A DNA stretch of 64,000 nucleotides from Bacteroidota bacterium (GCA_030680835.1 JAUXUD010000004.1:32400-96399), one strand, 5' to 3'; positions 6,375-26,345 are shown, counted from the stretch's first letter. Notes: generated from the sequence alone by a model not told the origin. Program-made: numbers and translations.

Positions 6375-6972
6375 GGTTAAAATATTTTATATAATCTTCT
6401 TCCGTGTTAATATTTGCCAATAGCTTTTCATCGTCAACCGGCACTTCTTCAAAGGAAAACTTTTCAAGAATCACTCTCAGGTCTTCAGAATCCGATTTTA
6501 TTTCTTTGATATGCTGAAGTATTTCTTTTGAAAGTAAAACGGGATGCCCTTTCTTACCCAAATAAACCGGAACCACATATTTACCAGGTTCAATTTTAGC
6601 TTTCATTTGATTGAGTAAACCGGATGTTGTAAATGGATTATCGATATTCTGTATGAAGACTGGAAAAGAATTGTCAATATTGTTTAAGCCCAGTTTGATA
6701 CTGTAAAAGCGGTCGGATACCGGTCTGATATTGCAAACAATTTTTATACTGTTTGCATTAAGATTTTCATGAATTTGTTTTTTCAATTGTTTTATTAATT
6801 GTGAATGGGTAACCAGAACAATATTTTCAATGCCGGCCTGGGTATATTGATAAACGAGATTTTGTATAAAGTTAAATTCGGGATCAAAGGACAACCAGGC
6901 TTTAGGCTGACCCAGTCTTGCGGATTTTCCGGCCATTAAAATGATTGCGCTATATTTATTTTTTACATCCAT
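6358..6972 (-). CDS. mocA: MobA-like NTP transferase, probable molybdenum cofactor cytidylyltransferase (MocA)
   Basis: ILMAGKSARLGQPKAWL nucleotidyltransferase motif. The track ORF 6358..7146 has a hydrophobic N-terminal run that overlaps the upstream gene. The internal Met at 6972 (MDVKNKY) abuts the upstream stop at 6977. Confidence 0.55.
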   Translation of the reverse strand: MDVKNKYSAIILMAGKSARLGQPKAWLSFDPEFNFIQNLVYQYTQAGIENIVLVTHSQLIKQLKKQIHENLNANSIKIVCNIRPVSDRFYSIKLGLNNIDNSFPVFIQNIDNPFTTSGLLNQMKAKIEPGKYVVPVYLGKKGHPVLLSKEILQHIKEIKSDSEDLRVILEKFSFEEVPVDDEKLLANINTEEDYIKYFNHAIPV

Positions 6973-6976
6973 ATGA

Positions 6977-10045: not shown

Positions 10046-10819
10046 TTAATTATTAGTCCACTGTGGTTTTCTTTTTTCCAGAAAGGATTGAATCCCTTCA
10101 TTTGCATCATGGGTTCCCATTAAATTGTTTACATAGAGTTGCTCCAGCTGCGGTAAAAAATTACTGAGGATATGATTGAATTTAATTCTAACGGCTTTAG
10201 TAGCGTACCTCAGTGAAGAAGCACTTTTCGGCAAAATGTTTTGTATGATCCATTCATTTACCCCTTGCTCCAATGCAGTTTTATCTTCATACAAATAATT
10301 GAGCAATCCTATGTTTTTAGCTTCTTCCGCACCGATTGTTTTTCCGGTTATAATTAATTCTTCGGCCCGGGCCAAACCAATTTTTTCGGGAAGCAGGATG
10401 GAAGCAGGCGGTGGAAAAACGCCCAGAATAATTTCGGGCTGACCTAATTTTGCTGTTTGATCGGCAAACATAAAGTCGCACATTAATGCGAGCTCCAGTC
10501 CACCACCCAGGCATTGGCCTGAAATTTTAGCCAGGGTGGGAATGGACAAATCGCGAAGGGTATAAAACAACTGATGAAAGGATCGAAGCATGGCAGCGGC
10601 CAGATCTTTCTGGTGCTCCTCTACGCTGGCTCCAAATGAAAAGTGTTTCCCTGCACCCTCAAAAATAATCAGTTTAAGATTGTTTGCTCCGCTAAAGGAA
10701 TACAATACTTTCTGCATTTCTTCCATCATCAAATGGTCGAGCACATTTCCCTTGCCATCATTTAGTAGAATGTGTGCAACCGATTGTTCGAATAAATAAG
10801 ATACTTGTATTTTTTCCAT
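10046..10819 (-). CDS. Enoyl-CoA hydratase/isomerase family protein (candidate dienoyl-CoA hydratase, Dch/BamR-like)
   Basis: 257 aa crotonase with AGKHFSFGASVEEH, GQCLGGGLELALMCD and FxxPE..LG motifs. Confidence 0.6.
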   Translation of the reverse strand: MEKIQVSYLFEQSVAHILLNDGKGNVLDHLMMEEMQKVLYSFSGANNLKLIIFEGAGKHFSFGASVEEHQKDLAAAMLRSFHQLFYTLRDLSIPTLAKISGQCLGGGLELALMCDFMFADQTAKLGQPEIILGVFPPPASILLPEKIGLARAEELIITGKTIGAEEAKNIGLLNYLYEDKTALEQGVNEWIIQNILPKSASSLRYATKAVRIKFNHILSNFLPQLEQLYVNNLMGTHDANEGIQSFLEKRKPQWTNN

Positions 10820-10821
10820 AA

Positions 10822-11922
10822 TTAAACTTTAGCAGTCTGGTATTGCGGTGAAATTTTATGGTGTAATTCTTCATTCCATTCATGACCTTCGGCCAGCAAC
10901 TGACGTAATAAAATAAAATCAACTTCACGGTTTTCTTTCGGACCTTCATTAAAAGCTTTGAACCCGGCTTTGGCTTCACTCATCATATTCAATGCCAGCC
11001 ATTCGCGGCTGCCTTCTTTATTTTTATCCCAGTGTTCCAGTTTAAATTTACGTACCTCACTAATGGTTTTACTCATGCAATTCGGAAAGGTATGCAGGAT
11101 TTTTGCAATCAAGTTATTTACCGATTTATCAAGCATGCTTAAATCGGTTTCAGCATGTGCAATCATTTCTTTTGCTTTTACAAGTGCCTCTCCGGTTTTC
11201 ATCGTTCCAAATGCAAATCTTCCAAATTCATCGGTTATTTTTTCGGTTTGAACCAAAGGATTTGCAATAAATTTTCCATCTACTTTCAGCACGGGAGCGA
11301 TATCTGTAATTACTCCAAAATAATAAGCCTGATGAGCTGTCCAGGGTTCACATAAGGTTAACGACATCATGGCCCGTTCTACACCAACATAGAGTGGAAG
11401 AAAGTCAGTAGCACCACCAATTGCCGCACTGCCATGCTTCGGACCTGCTTGTCCGAACCGTGCCATGTCACTGGCAATGCTAAAATCGCATGCCATTCCG
11501 ATTTCCTGGCCACCGCCGATTCTCATTCCGTTTACCCTGCAGATAACAGGTTTTTCACACATCAGAATGTTAGAAACCATATCGTTAAACAATCTCATGT
11601 ATTGCGAATATTCCTGAGGATTGCCAGAATAATATTCGGCGTATTCCTTGGTATTCCCACCGGTGCAAAAGGCTTTGTCGCCAACGGCTGTGAGCACTAC
11701 AGCCACAATGCTTCTGTCGTTTGATGCTTCCCTGAAAGCCAGGATGATTTCCTTAATGGCTGCTGTGGTATATGAATTAAATTGTTTGGGATTATTCAAG
11801 ATAATCCATGCATTGAATAATTTATCAACGGGCGTTCCATCCTTATCCAGGCATGGGCGTTTTTCGAAAAGAATCTCTTTGAAATCGATGTCAACAAGAT
11901 TGTGATTTTTTAATTCAGTCAT
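10822..11922 (-). CDS. Long crotonase-family protein with ~100 aa C-terminal extension (candidate ring-opening 6-oxocyclohex-1-ene-1-carbonyl-CoA hydrolase, Oah/BamA-like)
   Basis: 366 aa. Crotonase core (AFCTGGN..., VNGMRIGGGQEIGMACDFSIA) plus a C-terminal extension. The length and architecture match BamA/Oah rather than MenB or BadI (~260-285 aa). Confidence 0.45.
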   Translation of the reverse strand: MTELKNHNLVDIDFKEILFEKRPCLDKDGTPVDKLFNAWIILNNPKQFNSYTTAAIKEIILAFREASNDRSIVAVVLTAVGDKAFCTGGNTKEYAEYYSGNPQEYSQYMRLFNDMVSNILMCEKPVICRVNGMRIGGGQEIGMACDFSIASDMARFGQAGPKHGSAAIGGATDFLPLYVGVERAMMSLTLCEPWTAHQAYYFGVITDIAPVLKVDGKFIANPLVQTEKITDEFGRFAFGTMKTGEALVKAKEMIAHAETDLSMLDKSVNNLIAKILHTFPNCMSKTISEVRKFKLEHWDKNKEGSREWLALNMMSEAKAGFKAFNEGPKENREVDFILLRQLLAEGHEWNEELHHKISPQYQTAKV

Positions 11923-11930: not shown

Positions 11931-12995
11931 TTATTTAAAGTCGGGTGTTAAAACAGAACGTTTGGTATATTTATGTTCGAGTGTATTATTAAAAACTTCA
12001 TTGATTTGAGACATGGGAAAAGTTTCAACAAACTGACCAATTTTCAGTTTATCATCCGCAACGAGTGCAACCACTTCCGGATATAATTCGGGTTTGCATC
12101 CCCAGGTTCCGATGAGCTTGGCATCAAAAGCCATCAGGTTGCTTAAACGCACTTCAACTTTATCCATAGTAAAACCAACGATAGACAGGGTAGAGGCAAA
12201 AGTTACCAGATTAAATGCGAGCTCCTGACCCGGTTTTGATCCGGATATTTCAAATATTTTCCATCCATATTTTGGGGCTTTCAGTTCTTTTGCAATTTCT
12301 TTTACTTTCTCTTTGATGGTTTTTAAATCAAGACCTTTGGTATTTAATGTCGCATCTACGCCATTCAGTTTGGCAATGGCTAATTTCTCATCACTGATAT
12401 CCAGTGCCAAAACTTTTGCACCAAATATTTTGGCAATTTGTGCCCCGTAAATACCCACGCCGCCTACACCAATTACAATTGCAAAATCTCCTGCCACCAG
12501 TTCCGATTTTTTAACAACCTGGTATGGAGTTGAAATCGCATCAGCGATAACAGAGAGTTGTTCCAATGAATATTTTTCTAAAACTTTATCGGGTACCTCA
12601 CATAAATATTTGGAAGGTACTTTTATATGAGAAGCAAATCCTCCGTCAAAATCATTACCAGGCATCAGTTGATTTCTGCATATATTGCTCCGGTCGCTTT
12701 TGCATAAATCACATTCACCACAAGGCAATACCGCGGGTATAATTACATTTTTTCCGATCCATTTTTCATCCCCATCAACCACGGTTCCGCTTATTTCATG
12801 CCCGAGTGTTAAAGGCAATGCATGTTTGGTTTGAACCCCATGATGCCAGAAACTAATGTCGGTATGACAAACTCCGCAGCCGGCAATTTTTACCAGGGTT
12901 TCACCCTCTTTCAATTCCGGCATATCACTTTCTGATAAAACAAATGGCTTATTTAATTCAGTCATTTGCCATTGGTACATTTTATTTTCTTCCAT
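11931..12995 (-). CDS. Zinc-dependent medium-chain alcohol dehydrogenase family (candidate 6-hydroxycyclohex-1-ene-1-carbonyl-CoA dehydrogenase, Had/BamQ-like)
   Basis: GCGVCHTDISFWHHG...GHEISGTV zinc-ADH signature, a structural-Zn Cys cluster (CGECDLC) and GVGGVG Rossmann motif. 354 aa. Confidence 0.6.
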   Translation of the reverse strand: MEENKMYQWQMTELNKPFVLSESDMPELKEGETLVKIAGCGVCHTDISFWHHGVQTKHALPLTLGHEISGTVVDGDEKWIGKNVIIPAVLPCGECDLCKSDRSNICRNQLMPGNDFDGGFASHIKVPSKYLCEVPDKVLEKYSLEQLSVIADAISTPYQVVKKSELVAGDFAIVIGVGGVGIYGAQIAKIFGAKVLALDISDEKLAIAKLNGVDATLNTKGLDLKTIKEKVKEIAKELKAPKYGWKIFEISGSKPGQELAFNLVTFASTLSIVGFTMDKVEVRLSNLMAFDAKLIGTWGCKPELYPEVVALVADDKLKIGQFVETFPMSQINEVFNNTLEHKYTKRSVLTPDFK

Positions 12996-14261
12996 TTATT
13001 TCATATTTATATTTTCAAATAATATTGCAGTTCCTTGTCCGCCCCCAATGCAGGCAGATGCAATTCCGTATTTAACATTTCTCAGATTCATTTCGCGGAT
13101 CATGGTTAATGAAAGTCTTAAACCGGAAGCTGCCAGCGGATGTCCGATTGCAATGGCTCCTCCATTTACATTTAGTTTTTCTCTATCAAGACCCAGTTCA
13201 ATTTCACAACCGATCAGTTGTGCTGAGAAGGCTTCGTTAATTTCAAACAAGCCGATATCTTCAATGTTTAATCCTGTAAATTCAAGCAGTAATTTAATTG
13301 CAGGCACCGGAGCCAGTCCCATTAATTTAGGGTCAATGCCACAGGTAGCTGCTGCAACAATTTTTGCAATGGGTTTTAAACCTTTTGCCTGAACCGTACT
13401 TAAATCGGCCACCACTGCAGCCCCGGAACCATCAACAATACCACTGCAATTGCCCGCAGTTAAAACACCTACTTCCGAAAATACGGTTTGTAATTTAGCC
13501 AGTGATTCAAGGCTGGTATCGCGTATTTGTTCATCAACCCTAAAATCTTTAACAGCTCCCGGCAAGCGAACTTTTCTTGATTTCAATCCTTCTCTTTCGA
13601 AAACTGTAGAATTAATAGGTGTAATTTCATCTTTAAAAATTTCATTTTTTTGCGCATTGAATGCTCTTTGAAATGAAAGATAAGCGAATGCATCACATTG
13701 CTCGCGTGTAATCTGATGTTTTTTGGCAACGTTTTCAGCAGTGAATCCCATGGGATAACCTGCTGCGGTATCATCCAATGCCTCCCATAACATATCTTTA
13801 AACACAGGTCTTCCCAAAGGGTATCCCATGCGGTTTCCAAAACTTACCGTAGGTGCCAGCGACATGTTTTCGGTACCACAACATAAAACCAGTGCGGCTT
13901 TTTTTAAGGTAATTTGTTCTGCTGCCGTAATCAGGGTTTCAAAACCGGAGGCACAAATACGCTGAACCATTAATGAGGGAACTGTAATGGGCAGGCCGGC
14001 ATACAGTGCGATATGTCTCGGTAGAAAATAGGCGTCGCCGGAGGCCTGACCAATATTGGCTATAATGGCCTGATCAATATCATCCGGTTCAACACCCGAT
14101 TTAAGCAATGCAGCTTTTGAAGCGAATATCCCCAGATCAGTCGGTGATACATTAGCAAGGGTTCCGCAAAATTTTCCAAAAGGAGTGCGGATGCCATTCA
14201 CTAAAAAAATATCATCAAATGAGATGGCGATACCTTTTTCTTTATTGTGATAAGATTTCAT
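12996..14261 (-). CDS. Acetyl-CoA C-acyltransferase / beta-ketothiolase
   Basis: 421 aa. Thiolase active-site regions (VQRICASGFETL, NVNGGAIAIGHPLAASG, GIASACIGGGQG). Confidence 0.8.
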   Translation of the reverse strand: MKSYHNKEKGIAISFDDIFLVNGIRTPFGKFCGTLANVSPTDLGIFASKAALLKSGVEPDDIDQAIIANIGQASGDAYFLPRHIALYAGLPITVPSLMVQRICASGFETLITAAEQITLKKAALVLCCGTENMSLAPTVSFGNRMGYPLGRPVFKDMLWEALDDTAAGYPMGFTAENVAKKHQITREQCDAFAYLSFQRAFNAQKNEIFKDEITPINSTVFEREGLKSRKVRLPGAVKDFRVDEQIRDTSLESLAKLQTVFSEVGVLTAGNCSGIVDGSGAAVVADLSTVQAKGLKPIAKIVAAATCGIDPKLMGLAPVPAIKLLLEFTGLNIEDIGLFEINEAFSAQLIGCEIELGLDREKLNVNGGAIAIGHPLAASGLRLSLTMIREMNLRNVKYGIASACIGGGQGTAILFENINMK

Positions 14262-14263: not shown

Positions 14264-16111
14264 TTAATTGGATATAGATTCTGAAGTAACTAATTCTTTA
14301 ATGTTGTTTACAAGCCAGTTTTCTTTAGCCAATGTGGCGGCACCATAAGCAACCACAAACTGGGGATTGTCAACGGGATTGATTTCTTTATTAAATTTCT
14401 CACTTAAAATATTACTGATGTATGGATGATGCGCAACCACGCCCCCTATCAGGTAGGTGGGGATATTCGGAAACAGTTTCATTTTAGCAACTTTATTGGC
14501 AATGGAAATATAAATGCCTCTTGCGATATCCTGTTTCAGCATCCCATCAAATACCCATGTCATAATTTCTGTTTTTGCAAACACCGTACAAAAACTATTG
14601 AGCTCTTTATTGTATGAAGAGTGTGCAGCGAGACTGCTCATTTCTTCGATATTGATTTCGGCACGTTCCGAAATTTCCTCAAGGAAAGAGCCCGTTCCGG
14701 CGGCACATTTATCATTCATATAGAAATTGGCAACAAGGTTTTCATTGTTGGTATGAATGATCTTGATGTCCTCACCCCCGATATCAATAATGTTTTTTTC
14801 ACCGGGATAAAACGCTGCCACACCTGAGGCTGCGCAGTTTATTTCTGTTTTAATAATATCGGTTTCGTTAAAATGTTTTCTACCGTAACCGGTTGCACAA
14901 CTGTGTTTAATTAAAAATGCAGCATAGATTGACTTAAGCACATTTTTCATGGCATGCCTGTCTTTATTCATGGTAGGCAGTATATACCTGAACACCGGAG
15001 TGCCGTTCCCGTCAATAACAACAAATTTTGTAAATGCTGATCCCAGATCGATACCGAGGAACCCATTATGCTCTTTATAATAAATGGATGAACGGTTTTT
15101 TTCAAGCAAACCTTTATTGATAATTTTTTTATTCAGTTCATCTTCTACCCCCGGAAACCGGTTCAGTACATTTTTATTGGTCATGGCTTTCACCATATTT
15201 GTAAATGCCAGGTTAAGCGAAGTTTTTACGTAATGTTTTTTCCCGTATTCAACTATTTTCCCATTAAAATAATCTATTTCGGTTGGTCTGTTATTGATCA
15301 GGTCAACAGATAATGAAGGGAAGTGGTCACCTCCTTTTTTCAGGTATTGCATGCATTTTCTTACAAAATCATCCGAAAAGCGAATTTTCTCTTTTTCGGC
15401 AACATCAATGCCTTCGTTAATGATTTGTTCAATCAGTTCTACGGTGTCATCATCAGCCATTGCTTCAGCCATGGTTAGCCTGCCAACTCCGCATAGAGCA
15501 CTCAGTGAGGCATTCAAAATGGTTTTTTCCCAGATCCCTTTAACCAGTTCAAACGAATCCAGTTTATTTGTTTTGAAACCAATGCTGTTTAAGGTATCGG
15601 CCAATAGTTGCGCTTCTTTGGTTCTGTTGTCATCAATTGAACCTACATAATTTGGCGGAGTTACGAAAGATACGCGCACAATATTCGGGGCGCGCATGTT
15701 ACCTGCAAAATTAATAATCATGCGCAATGTTTTTGATTCACCAAACGTTGCGCTGATTAAACTTTCAACATCTATTCCGTTTTGTGCAGAAACCAAAGTA
15801 AGCTTATCTGTATTAATTTGTTCCGCTTCTTTAACAGCTCCAATTGTCTGATAGGATTTTAAAGAGAAGATGAGATAATCAAGATCCTGTGCTCTCATAT
15901 CAACAATCGAATCATATACATTGTCGAAACGGGTGGTTGATACCAAGGCGTTCTCAAGAATAATTCCGTCTTCTCTTACTTTTTTGAGTTTAAAATCATC
16001 TTTGTCGCAGATTGAAACATCGCAACCGGCCTCTTTAAATTTAACAGCGAGAATCATCCCCACAGGACCTAAACCTACAATTCCAACCTTAATTTTTTTT
16101 GTTTTTTCCAT
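14264..16111 (-). CDS. Fusion protein: ketopantoate reductase-like (ApbA/PanE family NAD(P)H oxidoreductase) N-terminal half plus BadF/BadG/BcrA/BcrD-type ATPase (CoA-substrate-specific enzyme activase) C-terminal half
   Basis: N-terminus KIKVGIVGLGPVGMILAVKF Rossmann motif plus an ApbA C-domain. The C-terminal ~270 aa is GIDLGSAFTKFVVID...NDKCAAGTGSFLE (ASKHA ATPase with the cluster-ligand Cys pair). 615 aa. Confidence 0.65.
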   Translation of the reverse strand: MEKTKKIKVGIVGLGPVGMILAVKFKEAGCDVSICDKDDFKLKKVREDGIILENALVSTTRFDNVYDSIVDMRAQDLDYLIFSLKSYQTIGAVKEAEQINTDKLTLVSAQNGIDVESLISATFGESKTLRMIINFAGNMRAPNIVRVSFVTPPNYVGSIDDNRTKEAQLLADTLNSIGFKTNKLDSFELVKGIWEKTILNASLSALCGVGRLTMAEAMADDDTVELIEQIINEGIDVAEKEKIRFSDDFVRKCMQYLKKGGDHFPSLSVDLINNRPTEIDYFNGKIVEYGKKHYVKTSLNLAFTNMVKAMTNKNVLNRFPGVEDELNKKIINKGLLEKNRSSIYYKEHNGFLGIDLGSAFTKFVVIDGNGTPVFRYILPTMNKDRHAMKNVLKSIYAAFLIKHSCATGYGRKHFNETDIIKTEINCAASGVAAFYPGEKNIIDIGGEDIKIIHTNNENLVANFYMNDKCAAGTGSFLEEISERAEINIEEMSSLAAHSSYNKELNSFCTVFAKTEIMTWVFDGMLKQDIARGIYISIANKVAKMKLFPNIPTYLIGGVVAHHPYISNILSEKFNKEINPVDNPQFVVAYGAATLAKENWLVNNIKELVTSESISN

Positions 16112-16160: not shown

Positions 16161-16625
16161 CTACAATGCCTGGATATAATAAATTTCCTCCTCTTTTGAT
16201 TCAAAACCGGTATTGATATTCTGAATGGCCTCCCTGATTATTTTACTCATATTTTCAGAAGAAGGATTTGTATCAATGGAGCTCAGATCGGTATTAATGA
16301 TAATGGAGGCGTTAATTTTTTCTGATGCCGGGTCCAGCTTTGTGTTTACAATTTTTAAGCATCCGGTGAGGCATCTTCCCAGTTCATCCAGGTTACGCGG
16401 ACAAAAACAACCTTCATCCGGAGATAATTTATATTCAGGATTATCCAATAATTTTTTATCCGGAAAAATCAGCGCAATATGATTTTCCCTGCCAGCATCA
16501 CTTAAGGAAACAAACTTTACATAGTGACAGGTATTCTTAATTAATTTTTCAATTTCCAGGGAACTAACTTTTTCTCCGGTTGAAAGTTTAAATACCTGGC
16601 TAAACTGTAAATGATGCATGTTCAT
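16161..16625 (-). CDS. Small protein resembling the C-terminal subdomain of AMP-forming long-chain acyl-CoA ligases; possible gene remnant
   Basis: FKLSTGEKVSSLEIEKLIKN...HIALIFPD resembles the FKLxxGEYxxxExIE...VVPD block at the C-terminus of ACSL/FAA-type ligases. Only 154 aa, with no adenylation domain upstream. Confidence 0.35.
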   Translation of the reverse strand: MNMHHLQFSQVFKLSTGEKVSSLEIEKLIKNTCHYVKFVSLSDAGRENHIALIFPDKKLLDNPEYKLSPDEGCFCPRNLDELGRCLTGCLKIVNTKLDPASEKINASIIINTDLSSIDTNPSSENMSKIIREAIQNINTGFESKEEEIYYIQAL

Positions 16626-16653: not shown

Positions 16654-17874
16654 CTAATGACTATAAACTCCTGAGCTTTCTATTTGCTCGATAAATGTCT
16701 CAATTTTGGTGATACTTTGTCCTTCCGAATAAAAACGCAAATCACATAAATCGCCTTCAATCACCATGGTTGGAATACCCAGGGTTTCCTGGATACGCTG
16801 CGGCATGCCAAACCTCGAATTTGAATTATTTGCACAGGTTTTTGCATCATGAAAAATCATGCCATCGATGCGAAAATCATGCACCAGTTGTGTGAGTATG
16901 GATTGTTTGGCTTCTTCACTTCTGTTAATAAATATTTCGGTATATGCCTGAGCCGATGATTCAAAAGGATTTCTTTCATCGAAAGCATCAAACACCCAGC
17001 TATTACAGTAGGTTGAAGCCACAACAGCTGAGTTGTTATTGATAAATAAATCCGACAATGATCTTAATTTCCCCCAGATGGGCATACCATCCCAGTATAT
17101 TCTTGATTTTTCTTTTTCTAAAAATCCGATTCCTTTTTCTACATTTTCAGTTAATTCTTTTAGTAATGTGATGTAATAGTCTTTGGCAATTTGGGTGCCT
17201 CTTAAAACCACAATCGGACCCATATGTATGGTTGCATCGAAAAAGCTTATTGGAGCCGGACTTTTCGTTGCGGTCCACAAAACCTGTTTCCATAAATCGG
17301 TTGCTTCCTTGCTTAATTTAAGTACTTCCCTGAAACGGTCAATGTCAAATTTTAAGCCGCTCACTTTCTCGCATAATGGAATCAGTGCTTTAAATTGTGC
17401 GGATACATCTTCAATTTCTTCTTTGGTTACTTCGGTAACATGCCGTGGCGGGTTAATTCCAAAAACAGGGCAATTTAATTCTCTTGCAAAATAGCTGAAC
17501 CAATCCTGTACTTCACGGCATTGGTTAGTATTGTAAACAATAATATCGGGTTTAGGCGGACCATTTAATCCATAATGTTCTTTTAAGGGAGTTTGACCGG
17601 TCAGGTATGAGCCGATATCAGCAGTTAAATACGAACAGATATCATTCGAATAACCCAGAATTGCAGATTCAGGAATCAAGTCGTTGGCAGTTCGGGTAGC
17701 TCCCAGTAAAGCTCCATGATTTTCGGGGAAATGTACTTCAAACCCAAATGAACGCAAGAGTTCAGCCGGACCCACACTGGTGCACCAGGCTATTTTTTTT
17801 GAAGGTTCTTTCATACCCAGGAAATAATTTCCCATTATTTCCTTCATTAATTTACTTGTTTGAATTTTATACAT
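16654..17874 (-). CDS. 2-hydroxyacyl-CoA dehydratase / benzoyl-CoA reductase subunit-like protein (HgdB/BcrB/BadD/YjiM family), unpaired
   Basis: 406 aa. N-terminal block IAWCTSVGPAELLRSFGFEVHFPENH... and C-terminal Cys positions are typical of the family. There is no partner A-type subunit adjacent. Confidence 0.6.
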   Translation of the reverse strand: MYKIQTSKLMKEIMGNYFLGMKEPSKKIAWCTSVGPAELLRSFGFEVHFPENHGALLGATRTANDLIPESAILGYSNDICSYLTADIGSYLTGQTPLKEHYGLNGPPKPDIIVYNTNQCREVQDWFSYFARELNCPVFGINPPRHVTEVTKEEIEDVSAQFKALIPLCEKVSGLKFDIDRFREVLKLSKEATDLWKQVLWTATKSPAPISFFDATIHMGPIVVLRGTQIAKDYYITLLKELTENVEKGIGFLEKEKSRIYWDGMPIWGKLRSLSDLFINNNSAVVASTYCNSWVFDAFDERNPFESSAQAYTEIFINRSEEAKQSILTQLVHDFRIDGMIFHDAKTCANNSNSRFGMPQRIQETLGIPTMVIEGDLCDLRFYSEGQSITKIETFIEQIESSGVYSH

Positions 17875-17905: not shown

Positions 17906-20035
17906 CTATATTTTTATCCTTGCATCCACGGCAAAAGCGCCATCTTCAAATGCCATCACCGGATTTAAATCCATTTCCTTTATTTGAGGAAAATCATTCA
18001 CCAGTTGAGATATGCGAAGTATCATTTCAATAACACTGTGTTTATCTAGCGCCGCTTCCCCTCTTGCGCCATCTAATAATTTTGCAGCTTTTATTGAAGA
18101 TAACATTTCGTTTGCTTCAACCCGCGTTACCGGAGATAATTTGAAAACCACATCTTTTAATACTTCAATATAAATTCCTCCCATACCAAACATTACAAGC
18201 GGTTCCAGATCTTTTTGAGCACTTACTCCAATAACAAGTTCCTTACCACCGGGAAGAAATTTTTGAACCAAAAACCGGAGGTCCTCCTCTATAAAATCTT
18301 CCTTCATTTTTTCAACGGCATACAAAACTTCATTGTCGTTTTTCAGATTTATGGCTACCCCGCCCAAATCGCTTTTATGCACAAGAGATTTCGATTCAAC
18401 TTTTACAACAACGGGATATCCAATTTCTTTCGCAGCTTTTACAACATCTGCCATAGAGTGGGCCAAACGCCAATCGGCAATGGGAATTCCATAAGCTGAA
18501 AGTAAGGTATATACTTGTTCGCTGCTAAGAAATTCTCCGGTAGATTTTACATTATTTAAAATGGAATCGGCTTTTACTTTATCTATATCATTAAAATGTT
18601 TGGGTTCACCAATATGCCGGTTTTGAACCAAATGGTACCTGTATAATGCGCCAAGCGCTTTGGCAGCAGTGGTAGGGAAGCTGTAACAAGGTACACCGCC
18701 ATCTTTCAGGATTTTGGCAGTCTCCTGAAAACGTTCCAGACTCAGGTTGGTCATGAAATTACAAACGATGGGTTTTTTGTGTTGTTGATTTACTTCAACA
18801 ATACTTCTTGCAACCTCATTGGTGTCGGTAAACGGAGCCGTAACAAAATTGATAAAAACCGAGTCAATCTGTTCTTCATTCATCATCACATCCAGCGCAC
18901 TTCTGAAATGAATTCCGCCTCCGGTTGCAACTACATCAACAGGATTTCCAATGCTTGCTTCGGGCAATAATGTTTGTTGTAAGGTTTGTATTGCTTTTTC
19001 AGAAAGAGCCGGAATCTGCATTCCTGCATGAACCAGTTCATCGGTTGCAATTACAGCAGGTCCGCCTGTATTGGTGATGATGCCCACACGGTTTCCCTTA
19101 GGGATGGGTTGTGTTGAAAAAGCTTTGGCAGCCTGACACATTTCTTCTTCATTGGTGAAAGAAAGGATCCCTGTTTTCTCAAAAATTAATTCAGTTGCAA
19201 TATCAACACCAGCAAGAGAACCTGTATGGGAAGCTGCTGCTTTAGCGCCTTCAGCAGTCCTGCCCGATTTCATGGCAAGTATTGGCTTTTTGCGTGCAAC
19301 CACTTTGGCCACTTTCATAAATTCTCCGGGATCATGAAATCCTTCGGTATAAAGTATAATGGCTTTGGTTGCCTCATCGTTACCATAATAATTTAATACC
19401 TCCGAAATAGAAATATCACATGCATTTCCATTTGAAGCATAGTAACGCATTCCAATTTCCAGGTCGAATAAACTTTGCATGATAAAGGCACCTACACCTC
19501 CACTTAAAGCTACAATTGAGATGGCACCAGGCTCCGGAAAAGTAAATGTAAAATCACAGTATGCTTTATAATCCGGATCGGTATTGATGATACCCTGACA
19601 GTTTGGACCAAATACCCGGATTCCATATTCTTTTGCCTTGTTGAGAAAAGCAGTTTGCAATGCAATGCCTTCTTCCCCCATTTCATTAAATCCGGCTGAA
19701 TTAATGATTACTGATTTAATTCCTTTTTTGCCACAATCTTCAATAATCTGAGGAACAAATTTTGAAGGAATAATGATATGTGCCAAATCAATATCATCAG
19801 GCACATCAAAAATAGTTTGATAGGCCTTGATATCCCTTATGCTGGGTTCTTTAGGATTGATGGGATAAATTTTCCCGGTATAACCATAATGTACCAGGTT
19901 TTTAATAATTACATTTCCGATGGATAATTCTTTTGAGGATGCACCAATTATAGCAATCGATTTTGGCTTAAATAAAGTATCCAGTTCGTGAGAAATGTCA
20001 CTTTCAATCAATACTGATTCTTCCTTATAATTCAT
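17906..20035 (-). CDS. Acyl-CoA synthetase (NDP/ADP-forming), fused alpha+beta domains (CoA-binding, CoA-ligase, ATP-grasp)
   Basis: 709 aa. N-terminal CoA-binding Rossmann region (SIAIIGASSKELSIGNVIIKNL), a succinyl-CoA-synthetase-like flavodoxin domain and a C-terminal ATP-grasp domain. Confidence 0.75.
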   Translation of the reverse strand: MNYKEESVLIESDISHELDTLFKPKSIAIIGASSKELSIGNVIIKNLVHYGYTGKIYPINPKEPSIRDIKAYQTIFDVPDDIDLAHIIIPSKFVPQIIEDCGKKGIKSVIINSAGFNEMGEEGIALQTAFLNKAKEYGIRVFGPNCQGIINTDPDYKAYCDFTFTFPEPGAISIVALSGGVGAFIMQSLFDLEIGMRYYASNGNACDISISEVLNYYGNDEATKAIILYTEGFHDPGEFMKVAKVVARKKPILAMKSGRTAEGAKAAASHTGSLAGVDIATELIFEKTGILSFTNEEEMCQAAKAFSTQPIPKGNRVGIITNTGGPAVIATDELVHAGMQIPALSEKAIQTLQQTLLPEASIGNPVDVVATGGGIHFRSALDVMMNEEQIDSVFINFVTAPFTDTNEVARSIVEVNQQHKKPIVCNFMTNLSLERFQETAKILKDGGVPCYSFPTTAAKALGALYRYHLVQNRHIGEPKHFNDIDKVKADSILNNVKSTGEFLSSEQVYTLLSAYGIPIADWRLAHSMADVVKAAKEIGYPVVVKVESKSLVHKSDLGGVAINLKNDNEVLYAVEKMKEDFIEEDLRFLVQKFLPGGKELVIGVSAQKDLEPLVMFGMGGIYIEVLKDVVFKLSPVTRVEANEMLSSIKAAKLLDGARGEAALDKHSVIEMILRISQLVNDFPQIKEMDLNPVMAFEDGAFAVDARIKI

Positions 20036-20064
20036 AACTCATTTTTTTATTCATATTTTTTTTT

Positions 20065-20152
20065 AAACACATAGGCACATAGATTCACATAGGTTTCACA
20101 TAGTAAAATACCCTATGTGAAACCTATGTTTTCCTATTGTGCCTATGTGTTT
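20065..20152. repeat. 88-bp imperfect palindrome built from CACATAG / CTATGTG units, flanked by ~15 bp direct repeats (aatt(t)cataactcat)
   Basis: aaacacataggcacatag..tcacataggtttcacatag|taaaatac|cctatgtgaaacctatgtt..ctattgtgcctatgtgttt. The direct repeats are at 20028..20042 and 20153..20168. Confidence 0.7.
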
Positions 20153-20184
20153 AATTTCATAACTCATACCTCATAACATAATAT

Positions 20185-21021
20185 TTACACCATCACTGCC
20201 TGTTTTTCTTTCAGTCTGATATGCCTGAATCCTCCCCATAAGGCTGCGCCCAATGCACCTGCGTATATGGCATCCGGGTGGGTTTTAATCACATATTTTT
20301 TCCCGGTTTCCAACAATTGTTCTTCTATTGCCTGGATCATTCCGGTATTCAGCGACATGCCTCCTGTTATGATAATCGGTGATTCCGCCTTTAAGGAACT
20401 CAGCAGTTTTATAATCCGGTTTGCAATGGAAAGATGAATGCCTTTGATAATATTGGGAGTTTTGATACCTCTTGAAACCATGTTAATCACATCGGTTTCA
20501 GCCAGTACTGCGCAAATTCCTGATGACAATTCAGGGGCTTCTGCCTGCAACGAAACGGTTCCTACTTCTTCAATCGACAGTCCAAGATAACGCGAAATAT
20601 TTTCAACAAATTGTCCGGATCCCGAAGCACATTGTCCGGTCATTTTATAATCCTGCACGCGTGCATCTGTTGATATTTTGATGGCCCGTACGTACAAAGC
20701 ACCCATATCCACTACTGTTACGGCATCCGGGAAGAAAAAATTGGCCCCTTTTGCATGGGTTGTCATCCCATAAAAATGTCCGCGTTTGCGCTTCACCAGA
20801 TCGCCTTCACCGGTTGATGCCAGATAAGCAATTTCTTCATATTGAAGATTGTTTCTTTTCAGCATGCTTTGAATTAATTCTTCTGCAACCACTGAAGGAT
20901 TCCGCTTTCTGATTTTTTCAGTATGCTTGTCAACGATCTTCGGATTGTTGGAATAATCTACCAAAATAAGTTTGATAAAATTTGATCCCACATCAATCCC
21001 CATTGTATAAAAGTTTTCCAT
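20185..21021 (-). CDS. bcrD: Benzoyl-CoA reductase-like small ATPase subunit (BcrD/BadG family activase-type ASKHA ATPase)
   Basis: 278 aa. MGIDVGSNFIKLILVD... and TGQCASGSGQFVE (Cys pair for the bridging [4Fe-4S] cluster). Fourth gene of the C-B-A-D order. Confidence 0.65.
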   Translation of the reverse strand: MENFYTMGIDVGSNFIKLILVDYSNNPKIVDKHTEKIRKRNPSVVAEELIQSMLKRNNLQYEEIAYLASTGEGDLVKRKRGHFYGMTTHAKGANFFFPDAVTVVDMGALYVRAIKISTDARVQDYKMTGQCASGSGQFVENISRYLGLSIEEVGTVSLQAEAPELSSGICAVLAETDVINMVSRGIKTPNIIKGIHLSIANRIIKLLSSLKAESPIIITGGMSLNTGMIQAIEEQLLETGKKYVIKTHPDAIYAGALGAALWGGFRHIRLKEKQAVMV

Positions 21022-21103
21022 AATTTTTTAATTCTTACTTCTTAATTCTATTTCATATTGTACATTGTTCTCGACTTAGCTCGGACTGACATGCGGTATA
21101 TCT

Positions 21104-21166
21104 TACATTGTACATTGTACATCGTAATTCGTACATCGTACATCGTAAATCGTACATTGTACATCA
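21104..21166. repeat. Tandem array of 9 copies of the 7-bp unit TACATYG (TACATTG/TACATCG/TAAATCG/TAATTCG), with an additional solo copy at 21061
   Basis: Read directly: tacattg tacattg tacatcg taattcg tacatcg tacatcg taaatcg tacattg tacatca. The array runs into the bcrA-like stop codon. Confidence 0.8.
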
Positions 21167-22579
21167 AGCCATTTCTTTTGTTTTCTTCGCATTGGGTAAA
21201 TCGGCATTTATATTTCTTCTGGCAAACATGGCACCTCCCAGAGCTCCCATAAAAATGGAATCTGTGTGAATATTTATTTTGATATGTTCGCCATAATTTT
21301 CTTTTACCAATTGGGTCAGGTATTTAATAACTGCCTGATTTCTGGCAACACCTCCGGTAAAAGTAAATTCGTTAAACACGCCACCCGAGCGGGCTATCAG
21401 CGACATGGCCCGCATGATGATTGCCTTATGCAAACCTCCCAGTATGTCTTCGCGCCGTTCTCCCAGATTGGTTAATTCACGCAATTCGGCACCTGCAAAA
21501 ACGGTACAGGTAGAGCAAATGGTCACTTCTTTTTCAGCCTGCATGGCCATGGGTCCGAGTTCATTTAATGAAATGCTCAGTTCATCTGCAATATATCCAA
21601 GATATCGTCCGCAACCTGCGGCACAACGGTCGTTCATCTGAAAACTGGTTACCAAACCATACTTATCAACCTGAATTGCTTTTGTGTCTTGTCCACCAAT
21701 ATCCAAAACCGTTCTGGTTTCAGGGAAAATGGCATGGGCTCCAAAGGCATGACATAAAATTTCGGAACGGATACATTCCTGAGGGAAGGGCAGGAGCGCA
21801 CGCCCATAACCAGTACCCGTCATATTGGTAATATTGAATTCAAGTTGGGCTATCTTATGAATATGCTCCCGTAACGAATCACTCACATGATAAAATTTCC
21901 CTTTCAGTAAATTAATTTCAGCATCAAAATTTACGCTTTCATCATCCATGTTTTCAGGAAGGTTTTCATATTTTTCCCTTAACACTTCCATGGCTTTTTG
22001 AACCAGTTCAAAAAAATTGAATTCAACTGCCTGGTTTTCGGCCGGACTGATACTCTTGTCCCAAATGGTCATGAGGGGTTCAAATAAGGAGTTGTCGAGT
22101 TTATTTACTTCTTCATTATACAACTCCGAAACGATGTCTCTGAAAAACTGATTTTTTGAACCCAGGTCGCCAAAAATATAGGCATGTTTTATTTTGGGCT
22201 TAATCACTTTTCTGATGTTTCTCAGGTTCTCCAGCATGAGTTCTCTTTTTTCGCCTGTTAAGTAACTGTTGCAGGTTTTTAATAATTCCTCACCCAGTTT
22301 ATCAATCCGGACCTTGAATTGTTCATATTGAAATACACTTTCCAGATCGGAAATATATTTTCTGTACTCAGGATTTAATTCCATATCTTTTTCAAGAATT
22401 TTCTTGAGTATGGAAAAGCGCGCATTGTAAATGGCTTCTTCCCGGGCGATATCAGCTGCAACAGAATAATTGGCACGGGTGTTGGTAATTCCCCTTCCGA
22501 TAATTTCATCCTGATCGTTTATGATTACCGCCTTTGATGTTGTGGAGCCAAGGTCTACTCCTAAATAATATTTATTCAT
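21164..22579 (-). CDS. bcrA: Benzoyl-CoA reductase-like large ATPase subunit (BcrA/BadF family)
   Basis: 471 aa. YYLGVDLGSTTSKAVII... N-terminus and NDRCAAGCGRYLG cluster-ligand motif. It is larger than a simple HgdC activase and sits in third position. Confidence 0.65.
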   Translation of the reverse strand: MNKYYLGVDLGSTTSKAVIINDQDEIIGRGITNTRANYSVAADIAREEAIYNARFSILKKILEKDMELNPEYRKYISDLESVFQYEQFKVRIDKLGEELLKTCNSYLTGEKRELMLENLRNIRKVIKPKIKHAYIFGDLGSKNQFFRDIVSELYNEEVNKLDNSLFEPLMTIWDKSISPAENQAVEFNFFELVQKAMEVLREKYENLPENMDDESVNFDAEINLLKGKFYHVSDSLREHIHKIAQLEFNITNMTGTGYGRALLPFPQECIRSEILCHAFGAHAIFPETRTVLDIGGQDTKAIQVDKYGLVTSFQMNDRCAAGCGRYLGYIADELSISLNELGPMAMQAEKEVTICSTCTVFAGAELRELTNLGERREDILGGLHKAIIMRAMSLIARSGGVFNEFTFTGGVARNQAVIKYLTQLVKENYGEHIKINIHTDSIFMGALGGAMFARRNINADLPNAKKTKEMA

Positions 22580-22646
22580 TTCTTTAAATAATTTCGTTTA
22601 CATGAATTCAATGTTTTCAATTAAATATTGTGTAAATACAATGTGA

Positions 22647-22665
22647 GGGCAGATGCAATCTGCCC
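22647..22665. promoter_or_regulatory. Intercistronic GC-rich stem-loop (gggcagat-gca-atctgccc) between the bcrB-like and bcrA-like genes
   Basis: 8-bp perfect stem with a 3-nt loop, in an AT-rich 119-bp spacer. Confidence 0.5.
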
Positions 22666-22698
22666 CTACCAGTTGTATCATATAAATTAGTTTTCATG

Positions 22699-24003
22699 TT
22701 ATATTTCAGCTTCTACTTGTTTCATAATTATTTTTCTTTGACCCAACATCTGGAAATAGGATTCCAAACGGTTTTTGATATTGGCATATGAGAAATATCT
22801 GGGATCCACCAAATCCGATTCGATAAATCCCACAGGCACTCCCGAGCGTTGTTCAATTTCGCGCATAATCATCAATTGCCCTGCTGAGAAAGAGTTACAG
22901 CTTTTAATGGAATTAATCAAAAATCCATCAGCCTTATATTCCTCCACGTATTTTTCAAGCAAATCAACCCGTTGCGGTAGGTTTAAATTGGTATACACGC
23001 CCATGCAATATTTTGCCAGACTTTCGAGCGGTGCATTCGGATCATGCCGGAAACCCTGATCGTAAACACCCCCTACTTTGGTATAGGAAGAGGCAACGAT
23101 CACAGCACCCATATCATAAAATATTTTCCAGAATTCACGGAAGTTGGTCCAGTTGGGCGGACCTTCAACAACCAGTCTGAATTTCTCTTCCTTTAGCTCT
23201 CCTTCAGGAGTTATTGGGCCTAAACCCAGTCGCATTCTTTCCTGCACTTCTTTCCATAATTCTGTATAGTATTCAACGGCTTCTTCTGTTCCCCTGAAGG
23301 CAGTGAAAATCGGACCGATATAATATACCCCGGCAAAGTATGCATCAATGGGAGATGGAACATGTTTGGCAGACTCCAGAACTTTAACCAATAAATCTTC
23401 TGCTTTTGCAGAATTTACCAGCATTTTAGAAAGCCGTTCCAGATCGAATTTTTTACCGGATACCATTTCCATTTTTGGAATCACTTCCTCATTCATTTGC
23501 TTCACCATATAATCAACCTGGTCCTGCGAAATTTTTCCATCTTCCTGATAAGGTGTATGCAGCATGGCCACAGGCACTCCGGGGTATAAGCGTTCCAGAT
23601 TCTCGAACCACTTTAAAAAGGTAAAACAACCTGTATAACTGAGCAACAATAAATCGGGGGGTGGAAGCTTTTCTCCTGTTGGACCTATATTGCCATTTAA
23701 CATCATACCGATATCGCATTTCACATAGGTACATACATCTTCCGAATAGCCAATTTTTTCGGCGTCTCTGATATAATCCGCAGATTTTTTTCGCATGCCC
23801 GACTGAAGCGCATTGATTTCGGGATATACCGGTAGCATATCAAAGGAAAGAATCAGCTCGGTGAGGTTACCGGGAACAAACGTATAAACCACTTTTTTAC
23901 CCAATTCCGTGGCGGTACTTAATTCCTTAAATTGTTTGGCCAGCATCTCTTTTTGAATGAGCATGCTGTTTTCTTTGATTGCTTCGTGTTGTTCTTTACT
24001 CAT
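22699..24003 (-). CDS. bcrB: Benzoyl-CoA reductase / 2-hydroxyacyl-CoA dehydratase family large catalytic subunit (BcrB/BadE/HgdA-like)
   Basis: 434 aa. The family-typical N-terminal block (VVYTFVPGNLTELILSFDMLPVYPE) and conserved Cys are present. Second gene of the operon. Confidence 0.65.
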   Translation of the reverse strand: MSKEQHEAIKENSMLIQKEMLAKQFKELSTATELGKKVVYTFVPGNLTELILSFDMLPVYPEINALQSGMRKKSADYIRDAEKIGYSEDVCTYVKCDIGMMLNGNIGPTGEKLPPPDLLLLSYTGCFTFLKWFENLERLYPGVPVAMLHTPYQEDGKISQDQVDYMVKQMNEEVIPKMEMVSGKKFDLERLSKMLVNSAKAEDLLVKVLESAKHVPSPIDAYFAGVYYIGPIFTAFRGTEEAVEYYTELWKEVQERMRLGLGPITPEGELKEEKFRLVVEGPPNWTNFREFWKIFYDMGAVIVASSYTKVGGVYDQGFRHDPNAPLESLAKYCMGVYTNLNLPQRVDLLEKYVEEYKADGFLINSIKSCNSFSAGQLMIMREIEQRSGVPVGFIESDLVDPRYFSYANIKNRLESYFQMLGQRKIIMKQVEAEI

Positions 24004-24047
24004 AATAATATTTTTATCATTTTAAACTTTGCTTTCATGTCAACATA

Positions 24048-24067
24048 GGTCAGGTCGCGACCTGACC
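24048..24067. promoter_or_regulatory. 20-bp perfect palindrome ggtcaggtcgcgacctgacc between the bcrC-like and bcrB-like genes
   Basis: Exact self-complement, in a 90-bp AT-rich spacer. Confidence 0.55.
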
Positions 24068-24093
24068 CTACAATATTCCCATTTCCTTCTTTA

Positions 24094-25257
24094 CTACGCC
24101 CAGAGTTTTATTGAATCAGAAAAAGTTCCTGCCTGTTCTTTAATCACTTTAAACTGCCCGGTGTTTTCATGGAACTGGAAATTGATATGGGGAATTCCGG
24201 CCAGGTCGCATTCTTTTTGCATTTCAGGGCGGTCGAGGAGGGCAGGGTCACAAAAACTTGCTGCACAGAAAATAATTCCATCGGCATCTCTTTCCTTAGA
24301 AAGTTTTACCAAACGTTTCCCTTTGGGATTTCCGACATCATAATATGCAGATGAGAAGGTGCTCTGGTTAATGTATGCATCCGCCAATGCTTCCAATGGG
24401 TTGTCTGTTGTTGCATTGATATCACCCTGTATCCAGCGCGATCCCAGCATAAAATCATCTTCTACGATATAGCAGCCTGCCAGTTCAATTGATTTGATCA
24501 AACCTATCGGAGGCTGTTCGCAGAAGGAACCGCTTACTACAATCCGGATATTATCCATGGGTTCACCTCTCTCATTTTGAAGATGTGAGACTACCTGCTC
24601 CAGAATTTCATTGTGTTCCTCAACCGGAATTACTTGCCCGGCTCTGAGAATATAATAGGTTTCCACTGCAGTAAGTTTCCAGGGTGCAGCTTGTCTGATT
24701 TCGTATATTTTCTCGATCAGGAATCTGTTTTTATTATACAATCCGATGGAATGATTGATGGCTTCAGAGGTAATTTTTATGCCATTAATGGCAAACATAT
24801 CATCTATTACTTTTCCAATTTCCTGCTTATAAAAAGTTCCCCCAATATTTGGATCAAAGTTTTGGGGATAATCAAAATAGCGCTGAAATTTTCCTTTTTT
24901 AGAGAGTTTAAACATTCCGGATAAATTGCGCACGCAGTCGCAAATGGCAGGGAACAGGAACCCATCAAACCCATCGAGATTATTATCCAGTGCCATTTCA
25001 ATAATGCCCCGTGGCAGGTGACATATATAAGATTGGTAATAAGCATCTCCTTTAATAATCTGTTTGCGGTCGCCCGAACCCATGATACCCACTGAAATGC
25101 CATTGGCAGCATGTATAATCTCGCGAGGCACATAAATTGGCAGATAACCTACGATAATCCGCTTTGGGTCCTCCGACTTCCATTGTTTGGCTCTTGAAAA
25201 GTTTAAGTCAAATGCCAGTAACTCGCATTCCTGCAGTATTTCTTCTAAGACTTTCAT
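24094..25257 (-). CDS. bcrC: Benzoyl-CoA reductase / 2-hydroxyacyl-CoA dehydratase family subunit (BcrC/BadD/HgdB-like)
   Basis: 387 aa. IIVGYLPIYVPREIIHAANG N-terminal block typical of the B/D-component family. First gene of the operon, with an AT-rich putative promoter region upstream (25258..25454). Confidence 0.65.
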   Translation of the reverse strand: MKVLEEILQECELLAFDLNFSRAKQWKSEDPKRIIVGYLPIYVPREIIHAANGISVGIMGSGDRKQIIKGDAYYQSYICHLPRGIIEMALDNNLDGFDGFLFPAICDCVRNLSGMFKLSKKGKFQRYFDYPQNFDPNIGGTFYKQEIGKVIDDMFAINGIKITSEAINHSIGLYNKNRFLIEKIYEIRQAAPWKLTAVETYYILRAGQVIPVEEHNEILEQVVSHLQNERGEPMDNIRIVVSGSFCEQPPIGLIKSIELAGCYIVEDDFMLGSRWIQGDINATTDNPLEALADAYINQSTFSSAYYDVGNPKGKRLVKLSKERDADGIIFCAASFCDPALLDRPEMQKECDLAGIPHINFQFHENTGQFKVIKEQAGTFSDSIKLWA

Positions 25258-26316: not shown

Positions 26317-26345
26317 ATTTATTATTTTGTTAAAACCTTAGTTAC

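Follow-up and report, generated by a model that had tools for sequence, protein, structure and literature searches.

A bcrCBAD-type gene cluster for a probable class I benzoyl-CoA reductase in a Bacteroidota bacterium

We analysed a stretch of 64,000 nucleotides from a Bacteroidota bacterium (hereafter the window) and found four consecutive genes on the minus strand, at positions 20185-25257, whose products very probably form a heterotetramer, an ATP-dependent class I benzoyl-CoA reductase of the type known from Thauera and Rhodopseudomonas (BCR type), which dearomatises benzoyl-CoA in the absence of oxygen. An earlier note on this DNA had proposed such an enzyme, with proteins of 387, 434, 471 and 278 amino acids (aa) in the gene order bcrC-B-A-D, the last two being unequal ATPases of the ASKHA superfamily. 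The listing of open reading frames (ORFs) returned identical ends and lengths, and Pfam placed two HGD-D subunits ahead of two BcrAD_BadFG ATPases. The proposed identity likewise held up, with BcrC and BcrB models above cut-off, BcrA and BcrD models as best matches of the ATPases, the cluster ligands kept, and Had, Oah, Dch and Hcr-like genes alongside.

Ring reduction by class I enzymes has, to our knowledge, been studied in facultatively anaerobic Proteobacteria, and Bacteroidota and Ignavibacteria are usually regarded as degraders of polymers and proteins. The four genes belong to an uncharacterised Bacteroidota/Ignavibacteria clade of a well-known enzyme, and annotation pipelines already recognise them. 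The less ordinary parts of the locus lie outside the bcr coordinates, namely a conserved extra module, the replacement of a ligase, and the lack of a ferredoxin gene in the window.

Subunits and phylogeny of the predicted reductase

The bcrC-like gene (24094..25257, minus strand) encodes the 387-aa gamma subunit, the predicted electron-transfer partner of the catalytic subunit, and the bcrB-like gene (22699..24003, minus strand) encodes the 434-aa beta subunit, which would bind the substrate and carry out catalysis. Both contain the Pfam domain HGD-D (E 5e-67 and 5e-66, respectively), and the products of the bcrA-like gene (21164..22579, minus strand; alpha ATPase subunit, 471 aa) and the bcrD-like gene (20185..21021, minus strand; delta ATPase subunit, 278 aa) contain BcrAD_BadFG (E 1e-68 and 5e-55), so that all four matches are far outside chance. 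Families were assigned with NCBIfam equivalog models and their curated cut-offs. The 387-aa protein reached 460.2 bits against the BcrC model TIGR02263 (cut-off 421.15) and the 434-aa protein 700.1 bits against the BcrB model TIGR02260 (cut-off 486.55). The comparison with BcrA-D hidden Markov models (HMMs) that the earlier note had suggested therefore bears out BcrB and BcrC in full; for the ATPases it gives BcrA (TIGR02259) and BcrD (TIGR02261) as top matches, but below their cut-offs. These two models lead the next-best model by more than 130 bits each and are aligned across their full length, the 471-aa protein being colinear with TIGR02259 (query 4-453, model positions 3-432 of 432). On the same four proteins, the Bzd-type models TIGR03190, TIGR03191 and TIGR03192 gave 102, 84 and 138 bits (cut-offs 454, 449 and 380), and the HadB and HadC models NF052455 and NF052456 gave 193 and 160 bits (cut-offs 750 and 700).

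In the BzdNO enzyme, the catalytic [4Fe-4S]-OH2 site of BzdO comprises Cys95, Cys128 and Cys380 together with Glu65, His131 and Tyr97, and BzdN holds a six-Cys [8Fe-9S] double cubane (PMC11971306). We found that Cys91, Cys126 and Cys369 of the window BcrB align with Cys95, Cys128 and Cys380 of BzdO, and Tyr93 with Tyr97. Glu62 sits within a conserved YPEIN motif and, judging from its position in that motif rather than from direct alignment, would be the counterpart of BzdO Glu65. All five residues (C91, C126, C369, Y93 and E62) are invariant or nearly so across 54 BcrB-like sequences. In BcrC, whose best solved relative is MbdN (E 2e-58), Cys79, Cys106 and Cys336 occupy the positions of the three Cys common to MbdN, HadC and BzdN, and the three further BzdN Cys positions are Pro, Met or absent. 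The cluster Cys, which the earlier note had named as the point to check in these two subunits, are retained in both as three-Cys sites.

A double-cubane site in BcrC was considered and ruled out, as BcrC retains Cys at just three of the six BzdN positions, the same three as MbdN and HadC. For this reason a single cubane, rather than an [8Fe-9S] double cubane, is to be expected in BcrC. The Thauera enzyme has classically been reported with three [4Fe-4S] clusters, which a single BcrC cubane fits.

Next, we considered the two ATPases. A single copy of BcrAD_BadFG stretches across residues 6-453 of the 471-aa BcrA, and the 269-aa MbdQ aligns to its residues 3-55 and 251-461, leaving an insertion of about 195 aa (residues ~56-250) inside the ASKHA fold. 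The insert does not resemble the 278-aa ATPase (E = 8). Together, the one Pfam copy, the split MbdQ alignment and this comparison rule out a tandem-duplicated activase, and the earlier claim of two unequal ATPases stands, the larger one being a single fold with an insertion and not a duplicated HgdC-like fusion. An insert-bearing alpha subunit sets the Thauera type apart from the Azoarcus type. MbdQ was the best solved ATPase match for both BcrA and BcrD, and no solved structure of the BCR type was among the PDB search matches.

The earlier note had also credited each ATPase with a Cys pair, CAAGCG in the larger and CASGSG in the smaller. Both motifs are present (C319-C323 in the 471-aa protein, C131 in the 278-aa protein), but each holds only the first of the cluster ligands. 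In BcrD, C131 and C170 align with Cys127 and Cys166 of HgdC, which we take to be the cluster ligands in the 1HUX structure, and comparison of BcrA with MbdQ and HgdC identifies C319 and C358, in matching motifs, as its cluster Cys. The motifs DLGS, DIGGQD and TGGVA are all present in BcrA.

The window BcrB shares 67% identity with a Rhodoplanes BcrB. Among 1.8 billion representatives of clusters at 50% identity, the nearest is 64% identical to it, and the relatives of this representative are proteobacterial proteins named benzoyl-CoA reductase subunit B by NCBI and JGI. In a neighbour-joining tree, 26 Bacteroidota BcrB and 15 proteobacterial BcrB form reciprocally monophyletic sister clades, with identities of 84-98% within the former, 81-100% within the latter and 61-67% between the two; no other relative in this comparison exceeds 60% identity.

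A scan of GTDB species genomes returned 400 BcrB relatives, and the counts of related loci given here rest on the best 80 of these, which are species-level metagenome-assembled genomes (MAGs; labelled L002, L084 and so on). At 80-94% BcrB identity, nearly all of them are Bacteroidia, Chitinophagales, Flavobacteriales, Saprospiraceae or Ignavibacteria, recovered from groundwater, lakes including stratified ones, peat and wastewater plants. The C-B-A-D order is found in 62 of the 80 loci, the remaining ones being interrupted by contig ends. Across Bacteroidota and Ignavibacteria, the gene cluster is thus found again in no fewer than 80 species-level MAGs. Many of its Bacteroidota genes are already auto-annotated as benzoyl-CoA reductase subunits in public databases, and we found no dedicated paper on a class I enzyme of Bacteroidota or Ignavibacteria in the open-access literature.

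By analogy with the characterised enzyme family, from which the mechanism is taken over, a low-potential ferredoxin would reduce the [4Fe-4S] cluster bridging the two ATPases (C319 and C358 of BcrA, C131 and C170 of BcrD), and ATP hydrolysis would lower the potential of the cluster electron. This electron would pass to the three-Cys [4Fe-4S] site of BcrC (C79, C106 and C336) and from there to the catalytic [4Fe-4S] cluster of BcrB (C91, C126 and C369), where a Birch-like, two-electron reduction would convert benzoyl-CoA to cyclohexa-1,5-diene-1-carbonyl-CoA, with the conserved Glu62 and Tyr93 assisting in proton delivery and thioester binding. The dienoyl-CoA product would then be processed by Dch, Had and Oah and enter beta-oxidation, and the Hcr-like molybdenum enzyme would feed 4-hydroxybenzoyl-CoA into the pathway. 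We infer the activity and the substrate, as well as the electron donor and the co-transcription discussed below, from these likenesses.

Pathway context and competing explanations

Every called gene between 25257 and 594 shares the minus strand with the bcr genes, and this string includes a set of genes for the steps that would follow ring reduction. Had, the 6-hydroxycyclohex-1-ene-1-carbonyl-CoA dehydrogenase (11931..12995, minus strand), scores 466.7 bits against TIGR03201 (cut-off 338.65), and Oah, the ring-cleaving 6-oxocyclohex-1-ene-1-carbonyl-CoA hydrolase (10822..11922, minus strand), scores 583.6 bits against TIGR03200 (cut-off 464.45) and 122.9 bits against the BadI model. A Dch-like cyclohexa-1,5-diene-1-carbonyl-CoA hydratase (10046..10819, minus strand) has TIGR03189 as its best match, at 223.4 bits and below the cut-off of 292.5. 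These genes are flanked by a 421-aa thiolase (12996..14261, minus strand; Thiolase_N and Thiolase_C, TIGR01930 391.8 bits, cut-off 240.55) and by a 666-aa fusion of 3-hydroxyacyl-CoA dehydrogenase and enoyl-CoA hydratase (8039..10039, minus strand; Pfam 3HCDH_N, 3HCDH and ECH_1). The lower pathway predicted from these genes is of the Thauera type and not of the Rhodopseudomonas type.

Further along the string, a 4-hydroxybenzoyl-CoA reductase-like molybdenum enzyme is encoded at 1147..4847 (minus strand) by a 923-aa protein, in which the [2Fe-2S] (gamma) and molybdenum (alpha) subunits are joined, and a 310-aa FAD subunit. The corresponding NCBIfam models TIGR03194 (803 bits, cut-off 994.55), TIGR03193 (166 bits) and TIGR03195 (202 bits, cut-off 404.55) all remain below cut-off, and each is the best match for its region. 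Inserted in the FAD subunit is a Cys-rich stretch (LCENRC...GYCLKCDGEVC...ACF), presumably the [4Fe-4S] loop that distinguishes HcrB. Pfam assigns the molybdenum-enzyme accessory genes at 4844..7146 (minus strand) to a short-chain dehydrogenase/reductase, an XdhC-type molybdenum-cofactor chaperone and a MobA-like nucleotidyltransferase, and such genes adjoin Hcr-like genes in related loci too. The last gene of the co-directional string encodes a hemerythrin-domain protein (594..1139, minus strand; Pfam Hemerythrin). In 16 related loci, a homologue is encoded no more than 1.5 kb upstream of bcrC. The hemerythrin-domain protein may serve the oxygen-sensitive reductase by sensing or scavenging oxygen.

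A heme A synthase gene, CtaA/COX15 (6977-8017, minus strand), stands in the middle of this string of anaerobic aromatic-degradation genes. Elsewhere in the window, positions 48306-57432 hold a full operon for heme biosynthesis, including a HemN-like gene of the oxygen-independent kind, and together the two suggest a facultative lifestyle.

Several observations weigh against the assignment of the four genes to a benzoyl-CoA reductase. The BcrA and BcrD scores (439.6 bits against a cut-off of 578, and 301.9 bits against 312.85) fall short of cut-offs that, we presume, were set on proteobacterial sequences. The phosphate-2 motif of BcrD (residues 104-109) is degenerate, reading DMGALY instead of DxGGQD. 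The position of BzdO His131 is taken by Phe129 in BcrB, yet Phe is also found in MbdO and in the Rhodoplanes BcrB, and we therefore read it as a difference of type, not a defect. The proteobacterial reference set consists of BcrB from MAGs, so named by NCBI or JGI, which stand in for the sequences of T. aromatica and R. palustris. No BadA-type benzoate-CoA ligase is present, a six-frame motif scan of the 64-kb window found no ORF with the ferredoxin motif CxxCxxCxxxC, and no 2-oxoacid:ferredoxin oxidoreductase is among the annotated ORFs of the window. Finally, we found no culture or assay of any member of the Bacteroidota clade in the open-access literature.

The variant phosphate-2 motif is a property of the clade: D[ML]GAL[YF] occurs in all 61 Bacteroidota BcrD orthologues (61/61), and DxGGQD occupies the same place in BcrA, MbdQ, HadI and HgdC. 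This pattern may reflect asymmetric ATP handling by the two ATPase subunits. With regard to the electron donor, in two related loci (L084 and L085) a two-subunit 2-oxoacid:acceptor oxidoreductase of the KorAB type (18197-21056; TIGR03710 631 bits, cut-off 483) closes the same cluster and stands where the window has CtaA; this oxidoreductase family presumably includes the Thauera KorAB. A NifJ-type pyruvate:ferredoxin oxidoreductase lies a few kb upstream of bcrC in L029 (3070-6645) and in several other loci. The KorAB-type enzyme or the pyruvate:ferredoxin oxidoreductase could be the low-potential electron source of these relatives, and we infer a donor system in the genome of the window as well.

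We next weighed what else the four genes could encode. A BCR-type aryl-CoA reductase might act on another aryl-CoA (for example a benzoyl-CoA with a methyl, hydroxy or halogen substituent, or one with a different ring system) rather than on benzoyl-CoA itself, and both the sub-threshold scores of BcrA and BcrD and the identity of only 61-67% to proteobacterial BcrB leave room for this, as does the existence of class I enzymes of altered or broad specificity, such as the solved MbdONQP, which is named 3-methylbenzoyl-CoA reductase. We nevertheless consider this unlikely, given that BcrB and BcrC pass cut-offs built for benzoyl-CoA reductase, that the neighbouring Dch, Had and Oah handle the unsubstituted dienoyl-CoA while the Hcr-like enzyme would supply benzoyl-CoA, and that the Bacteroidota clade is sister to the proteobacterial BcrB and not outside it. 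More unlikely still is a Rhodopseudomonas-style BadDEFG enzyme, in which a four-electron reduction would yield cyclohex-1-ene-1-carboxyl-CoA for the BadK/BadH/BadI route. The badDEFG system has the same subunit architecture and gene order as bcrCBAD, and the HMMs used here cannot tell Bcr from Bad; the distinction comes from the neighbouring genes, where the ring-opening enzyme fits Oah and not BadI and where Had is above the cut-off of the Thauera-type dehydrogenase.

The four genes could also, in principle, specify no reductase at all but a 2-hydroxyacyl-CoA dehydratase whose activator is a heterodimer, a reading to which we assign a negligible chance. One superfamily covers both kinds of enzyme, HadB and HadC rank second among the solved relatives, and a HadB-like gene and a third activase do occur within the cluster. 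The HadB and HadC models, however, remain at about a quarter of their cut-offs while the BcrB and BcrC models pass theirs, and two distinct ATPases in bcrCBAD order, one of them with the BcrA-specific insert, set the system apart from the known 2-hydroxyacyl-CoA dehydratases, which rely on one homodimeric activator. A reductase of the BZD or MBR type was rejected as well: the Bzd models are far below cut-off, the ATPases are of unequal length (471 versus 278 aa), and three of the six BzdN Cys are missing.

The class I benzoyl-CoA reductase of the BCR type is accordingly the reading that we carry into the comparison with characterised systems. The Thauera aromatica BcrCBAD and the Rhodopseudomonas palustris BadDEFG have the same four subunits in the same gene order, likewise with two HGD-D proteins and two unequal ASKHA ATPases, the alpha subunit bearing a large insert. 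The models for all four of these subunits match the window proteins, B and C above cut-off, and the Thauera-type Dch/Had/Oah pathway adjoins the four bcr genes in the window as well. The differences lie in the host, which is from Bacteroidota/Ignavibacteria and forms a separate sister clade, and in BcrA (471 aa versus a 432-position model) and BcrD, which are under cut-off. Unlike the Thauera-type bcrCBAD-fdx plus korAB cluster, the window has no fdx after bcrD and no 2-oxoglutarate:ferredoxin oxidoreductase, both being accessory to the cluster and not part of the enzyme; instead, what follows bcrD in these clusters is a CoA ligase or an ADP-forming synthetase, together with a HadB-like subunit that stands alone and a fusion of PanE and activase domains.

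The nearest solved structure for all four subunits (E 3e-60, 2e-58, 2e-62 and 1.5e-35) is that of MbdONQP, of the MBR type (PDB 9g87, 9gai, 9gal and 9gba), on which we found no paper in the open-access literature. It has the same three-Cys sites in the O/B and N/C subunits and Phe at the position of BzdO His131, but its ATPases (MbdQ, 269 aa; MbdP, 273 aa) are of equal size and have no alpha insert. With BzdNOPQ of Aromatoleum sp. CIB, of the BZD type (BzdNO structure 8s02, PMC11971306), the window BcrB shares the BzdO ligands and Tyr97, and it has a conserved Glu, but the Bzd HMMs score only 84-138 bits on the window proteins against cut-offs of 380-454, the BzdN site has six Cys where the window BcrC has three, and BzdO has His131 where the window BcrB has Phe. 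HadBC and HadI (3o3m, 4eht) belong to the same superfamily, with three-Cys sites and the activase fold, and the 406-aa subunit described below is closest to HadB; the four-gene set, in contrast, encodes two distinct ATPases and scores much higher with the Bcr than with the Had models.

A conserved extra module next to the bcr genes

Downstream of bcrD, the window encodes a 709-aa ADP-forming (NDP-forming) acyl-CoA synthetase (17906..20035, minus strand) with the domains CoA_binding_2, Succ_CoA_lig, Ligase_CoA_2 and ATP-grasp_5, whose best NCBIfam match, under cut-off, is an ADP-forming 4-hydroxybutyrate-CoA ligase. It is a candidate for the CoA-activating enzyme of this cluster variant. In 38 related loci (for example L028, L021 and L084), bcrD is followed instead by a FadD-like AMP-forming ligase of about 580 aa, and a 154-aa protein of the window (16161..16625, minus strand; weak match to AMP-binding_C_3) aligns with the C-terminus of these ligases, of which it corresponds to the C-terminal domain. 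Its residues C33, C73, C85 and C89 show no variation, and C75 is conserved at 96%; the Cys motif reads GCFCPR..EL..CL.GC. In the window and 15 other loci, only these C-terminal ~155 aa of the ligase remain, as a separate ORF, and the ADP-forming synthetase is found in place of the rest, with one exception in each direction; a single related locus has the synthetase alongside a near full-length AMP-forming ligase. By this pattern of occurrence, the ADP-forming synthetase replaces the usual AMP-forming ligase in this lineage. We know of no described ADP-forming activation step for the benzoyl-CoA pathway.

Two further genes make up the module. A lone HadB-like (alpha-type) HGD-D subunit of 406 aa (16654..17874, minus strand; HGD-D E 9e-60) has HadB as its best NCBIfam and PDB match (220.8 bits; E 3e-49), lacks a gene for a beta-type partner, and keeps the Cys, Glu and Tyr positions that align with the catalytic positions of BcrB. 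The other gene (14264..16111, minus strand) encodes a 615-aa protein in which a PanE/ApbA domain resembling 2-oxoacid reductases (ApbA and ApbA_C) is fused to a third activase ATPase (BcrAD_BadFG; TIGR00241 174 bits, cut-off 125.4) with C469 and C508 as cluster Cys. Among the 43 related loci with enough downstream flank, the lone HGD-D subunit is present in 41 and the fusion in 36. The 120 best homologues of the PanE-activase protein share this domain fusion without exception, and those with an organism name are all from Bacteroidota; the database label of the fusion is '2-dehydropantoate 2-reductase' only. In the clusters of two 'Maribacter' MAGs, a HisC-family aminotransferase gene (L082 10382-11398 and L083 7139-8155; TIGR01141 298.5 bits, cut-off 276.55) stands between the fusion and the thiolase, which hints at a substrate derived from an amino acid.

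Taken together, an aminotransferase, a 2-oxoacid reductase, CoA activation, a dehydratase-type subunit and an activase resemble the clostridial route of aryl-lactate or 2-hydroxyacid dehydration. By this analogy we put forward the tentative, and to us still rather doubtful, hypothesis that bcrCBAD is one half of an undescribed pathway specific to Bacteroidota. In its other half, a second radical enzyme of the superfamily of benzoyl-CoA reductases and 2-hydroxyacyl-CoA dehydratases, composed of the HadB-like subunit and the PanE-activase fusion, would make cinnamoyl- or coumaroyl-CoA from the 2-oxo or 2-hydroxy acids of Phe and Tyr, in cooperation with the CoA ligase (or its ADP-forming replacement) and, where a genome encodes one, with the HisC-family aminotransferase. 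The hydratase/dehydrogenase and thiolase of the cluster would then shorten these products to benzoyl- or 4-hydroxybenzoyl-CoA for BCR and Hcr. Under this hypothesis the absence of a BadA-type ligase would be explained, because carbon from Phe and Tyr could feed benzoyl-CoA. Alternatively, the extra module may connect with the lower pathway at glutaconyl-CoA or 2-hydroxyglutaryl-CoA. If the Phe/Tyr route is true, the reductase would serve anaerobic catabolism of aromatic amino acids in widespread protein-degrading bacteria, unlike the phenylacetate route of Thauera and Aromatoleum, and the route would open with an ADP-forming, energy-saving activation step.

Operon structure, host and significance

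The spacers between the four bcr genes measure 90, 119 and 142 nt, with 149 nt from bcrD to the synthetase gene, whereas the median gaps between the four genes in related loci are 38, 30 and 18 nt. The spacers of the window (24004-24093, 22580-22698, 21022-21163 and 20036-20184) are widened by tandem arrays of heptamers (GTACATC in 10 copies, TCATAAC; one array lies at 21096-21165) and by GC-rich hairpins (GGGTCAGGTCGCGACCTGACC and GGGGCAGATTGCATCTGCCC, as well as a long hairpin ahead of the synthetase gene). The closest relative, L002, has similar elements, for example (GGTAATT)x8-hairpin-(GGTAATT)x8, and most relatives have short spacers; the expanded spacers look like intergenic elements of the REP (repetitive extragenic palindromic) or MITE (miniature inverted-repeat transposable element) kind. 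A terminator scan found no terminator-like site in the gaps between the four bcr genes, and from their arrangement co-transcription appears likely. A sigma-70 promoter scan of the window gave fewer sites than shuffled sequence (45 versus 58) and does not cover the promoters of Bacteroidota, and was thus uninformative; upstream of bcrC there is only a near-match (TCACTTTG), at a distance of 75 nt.

We read the window as Bacteroidota DNA because it encodes type IX secretion system (T9SS) sorting domains and a CusB with DUF3347 and has a GC content of about 39%. Identical proteins are deposited at NCBI under a Bacteroidota MAG, and the same contig is also found in SRR13727518. A protein-level search of a plasmid collection returned relatives at 27% identity or less, and thus no indication that the DNA comes from a plasmid; scans of the window for tRNA genes and Rfam families had no matches. 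Diverging from bcrC, the plus strand at 25455-33371 encodes a Cys/His-rich small ORF without family match, a protein with an HMA domain and a CusA/CzcA-OEP-CusB heavy-metal efflux system, genes that appear unrelated to the bcr finding.

With a conserved, complete benzoyl-CoA pathway cluster in no fewer than 80 species-level MAGs, an abundant phylum would join the organisms able to mineralise aromatic rings anaerobically. The attribution of metagenomic bcr marker genes would change as well, because BcrB of this clade and of Proteobacteria share no more than 61-67% identity. The clade would represent a second, divergent lineage of BCR-type enzymes. The conserved extra genes provide concrete leads.

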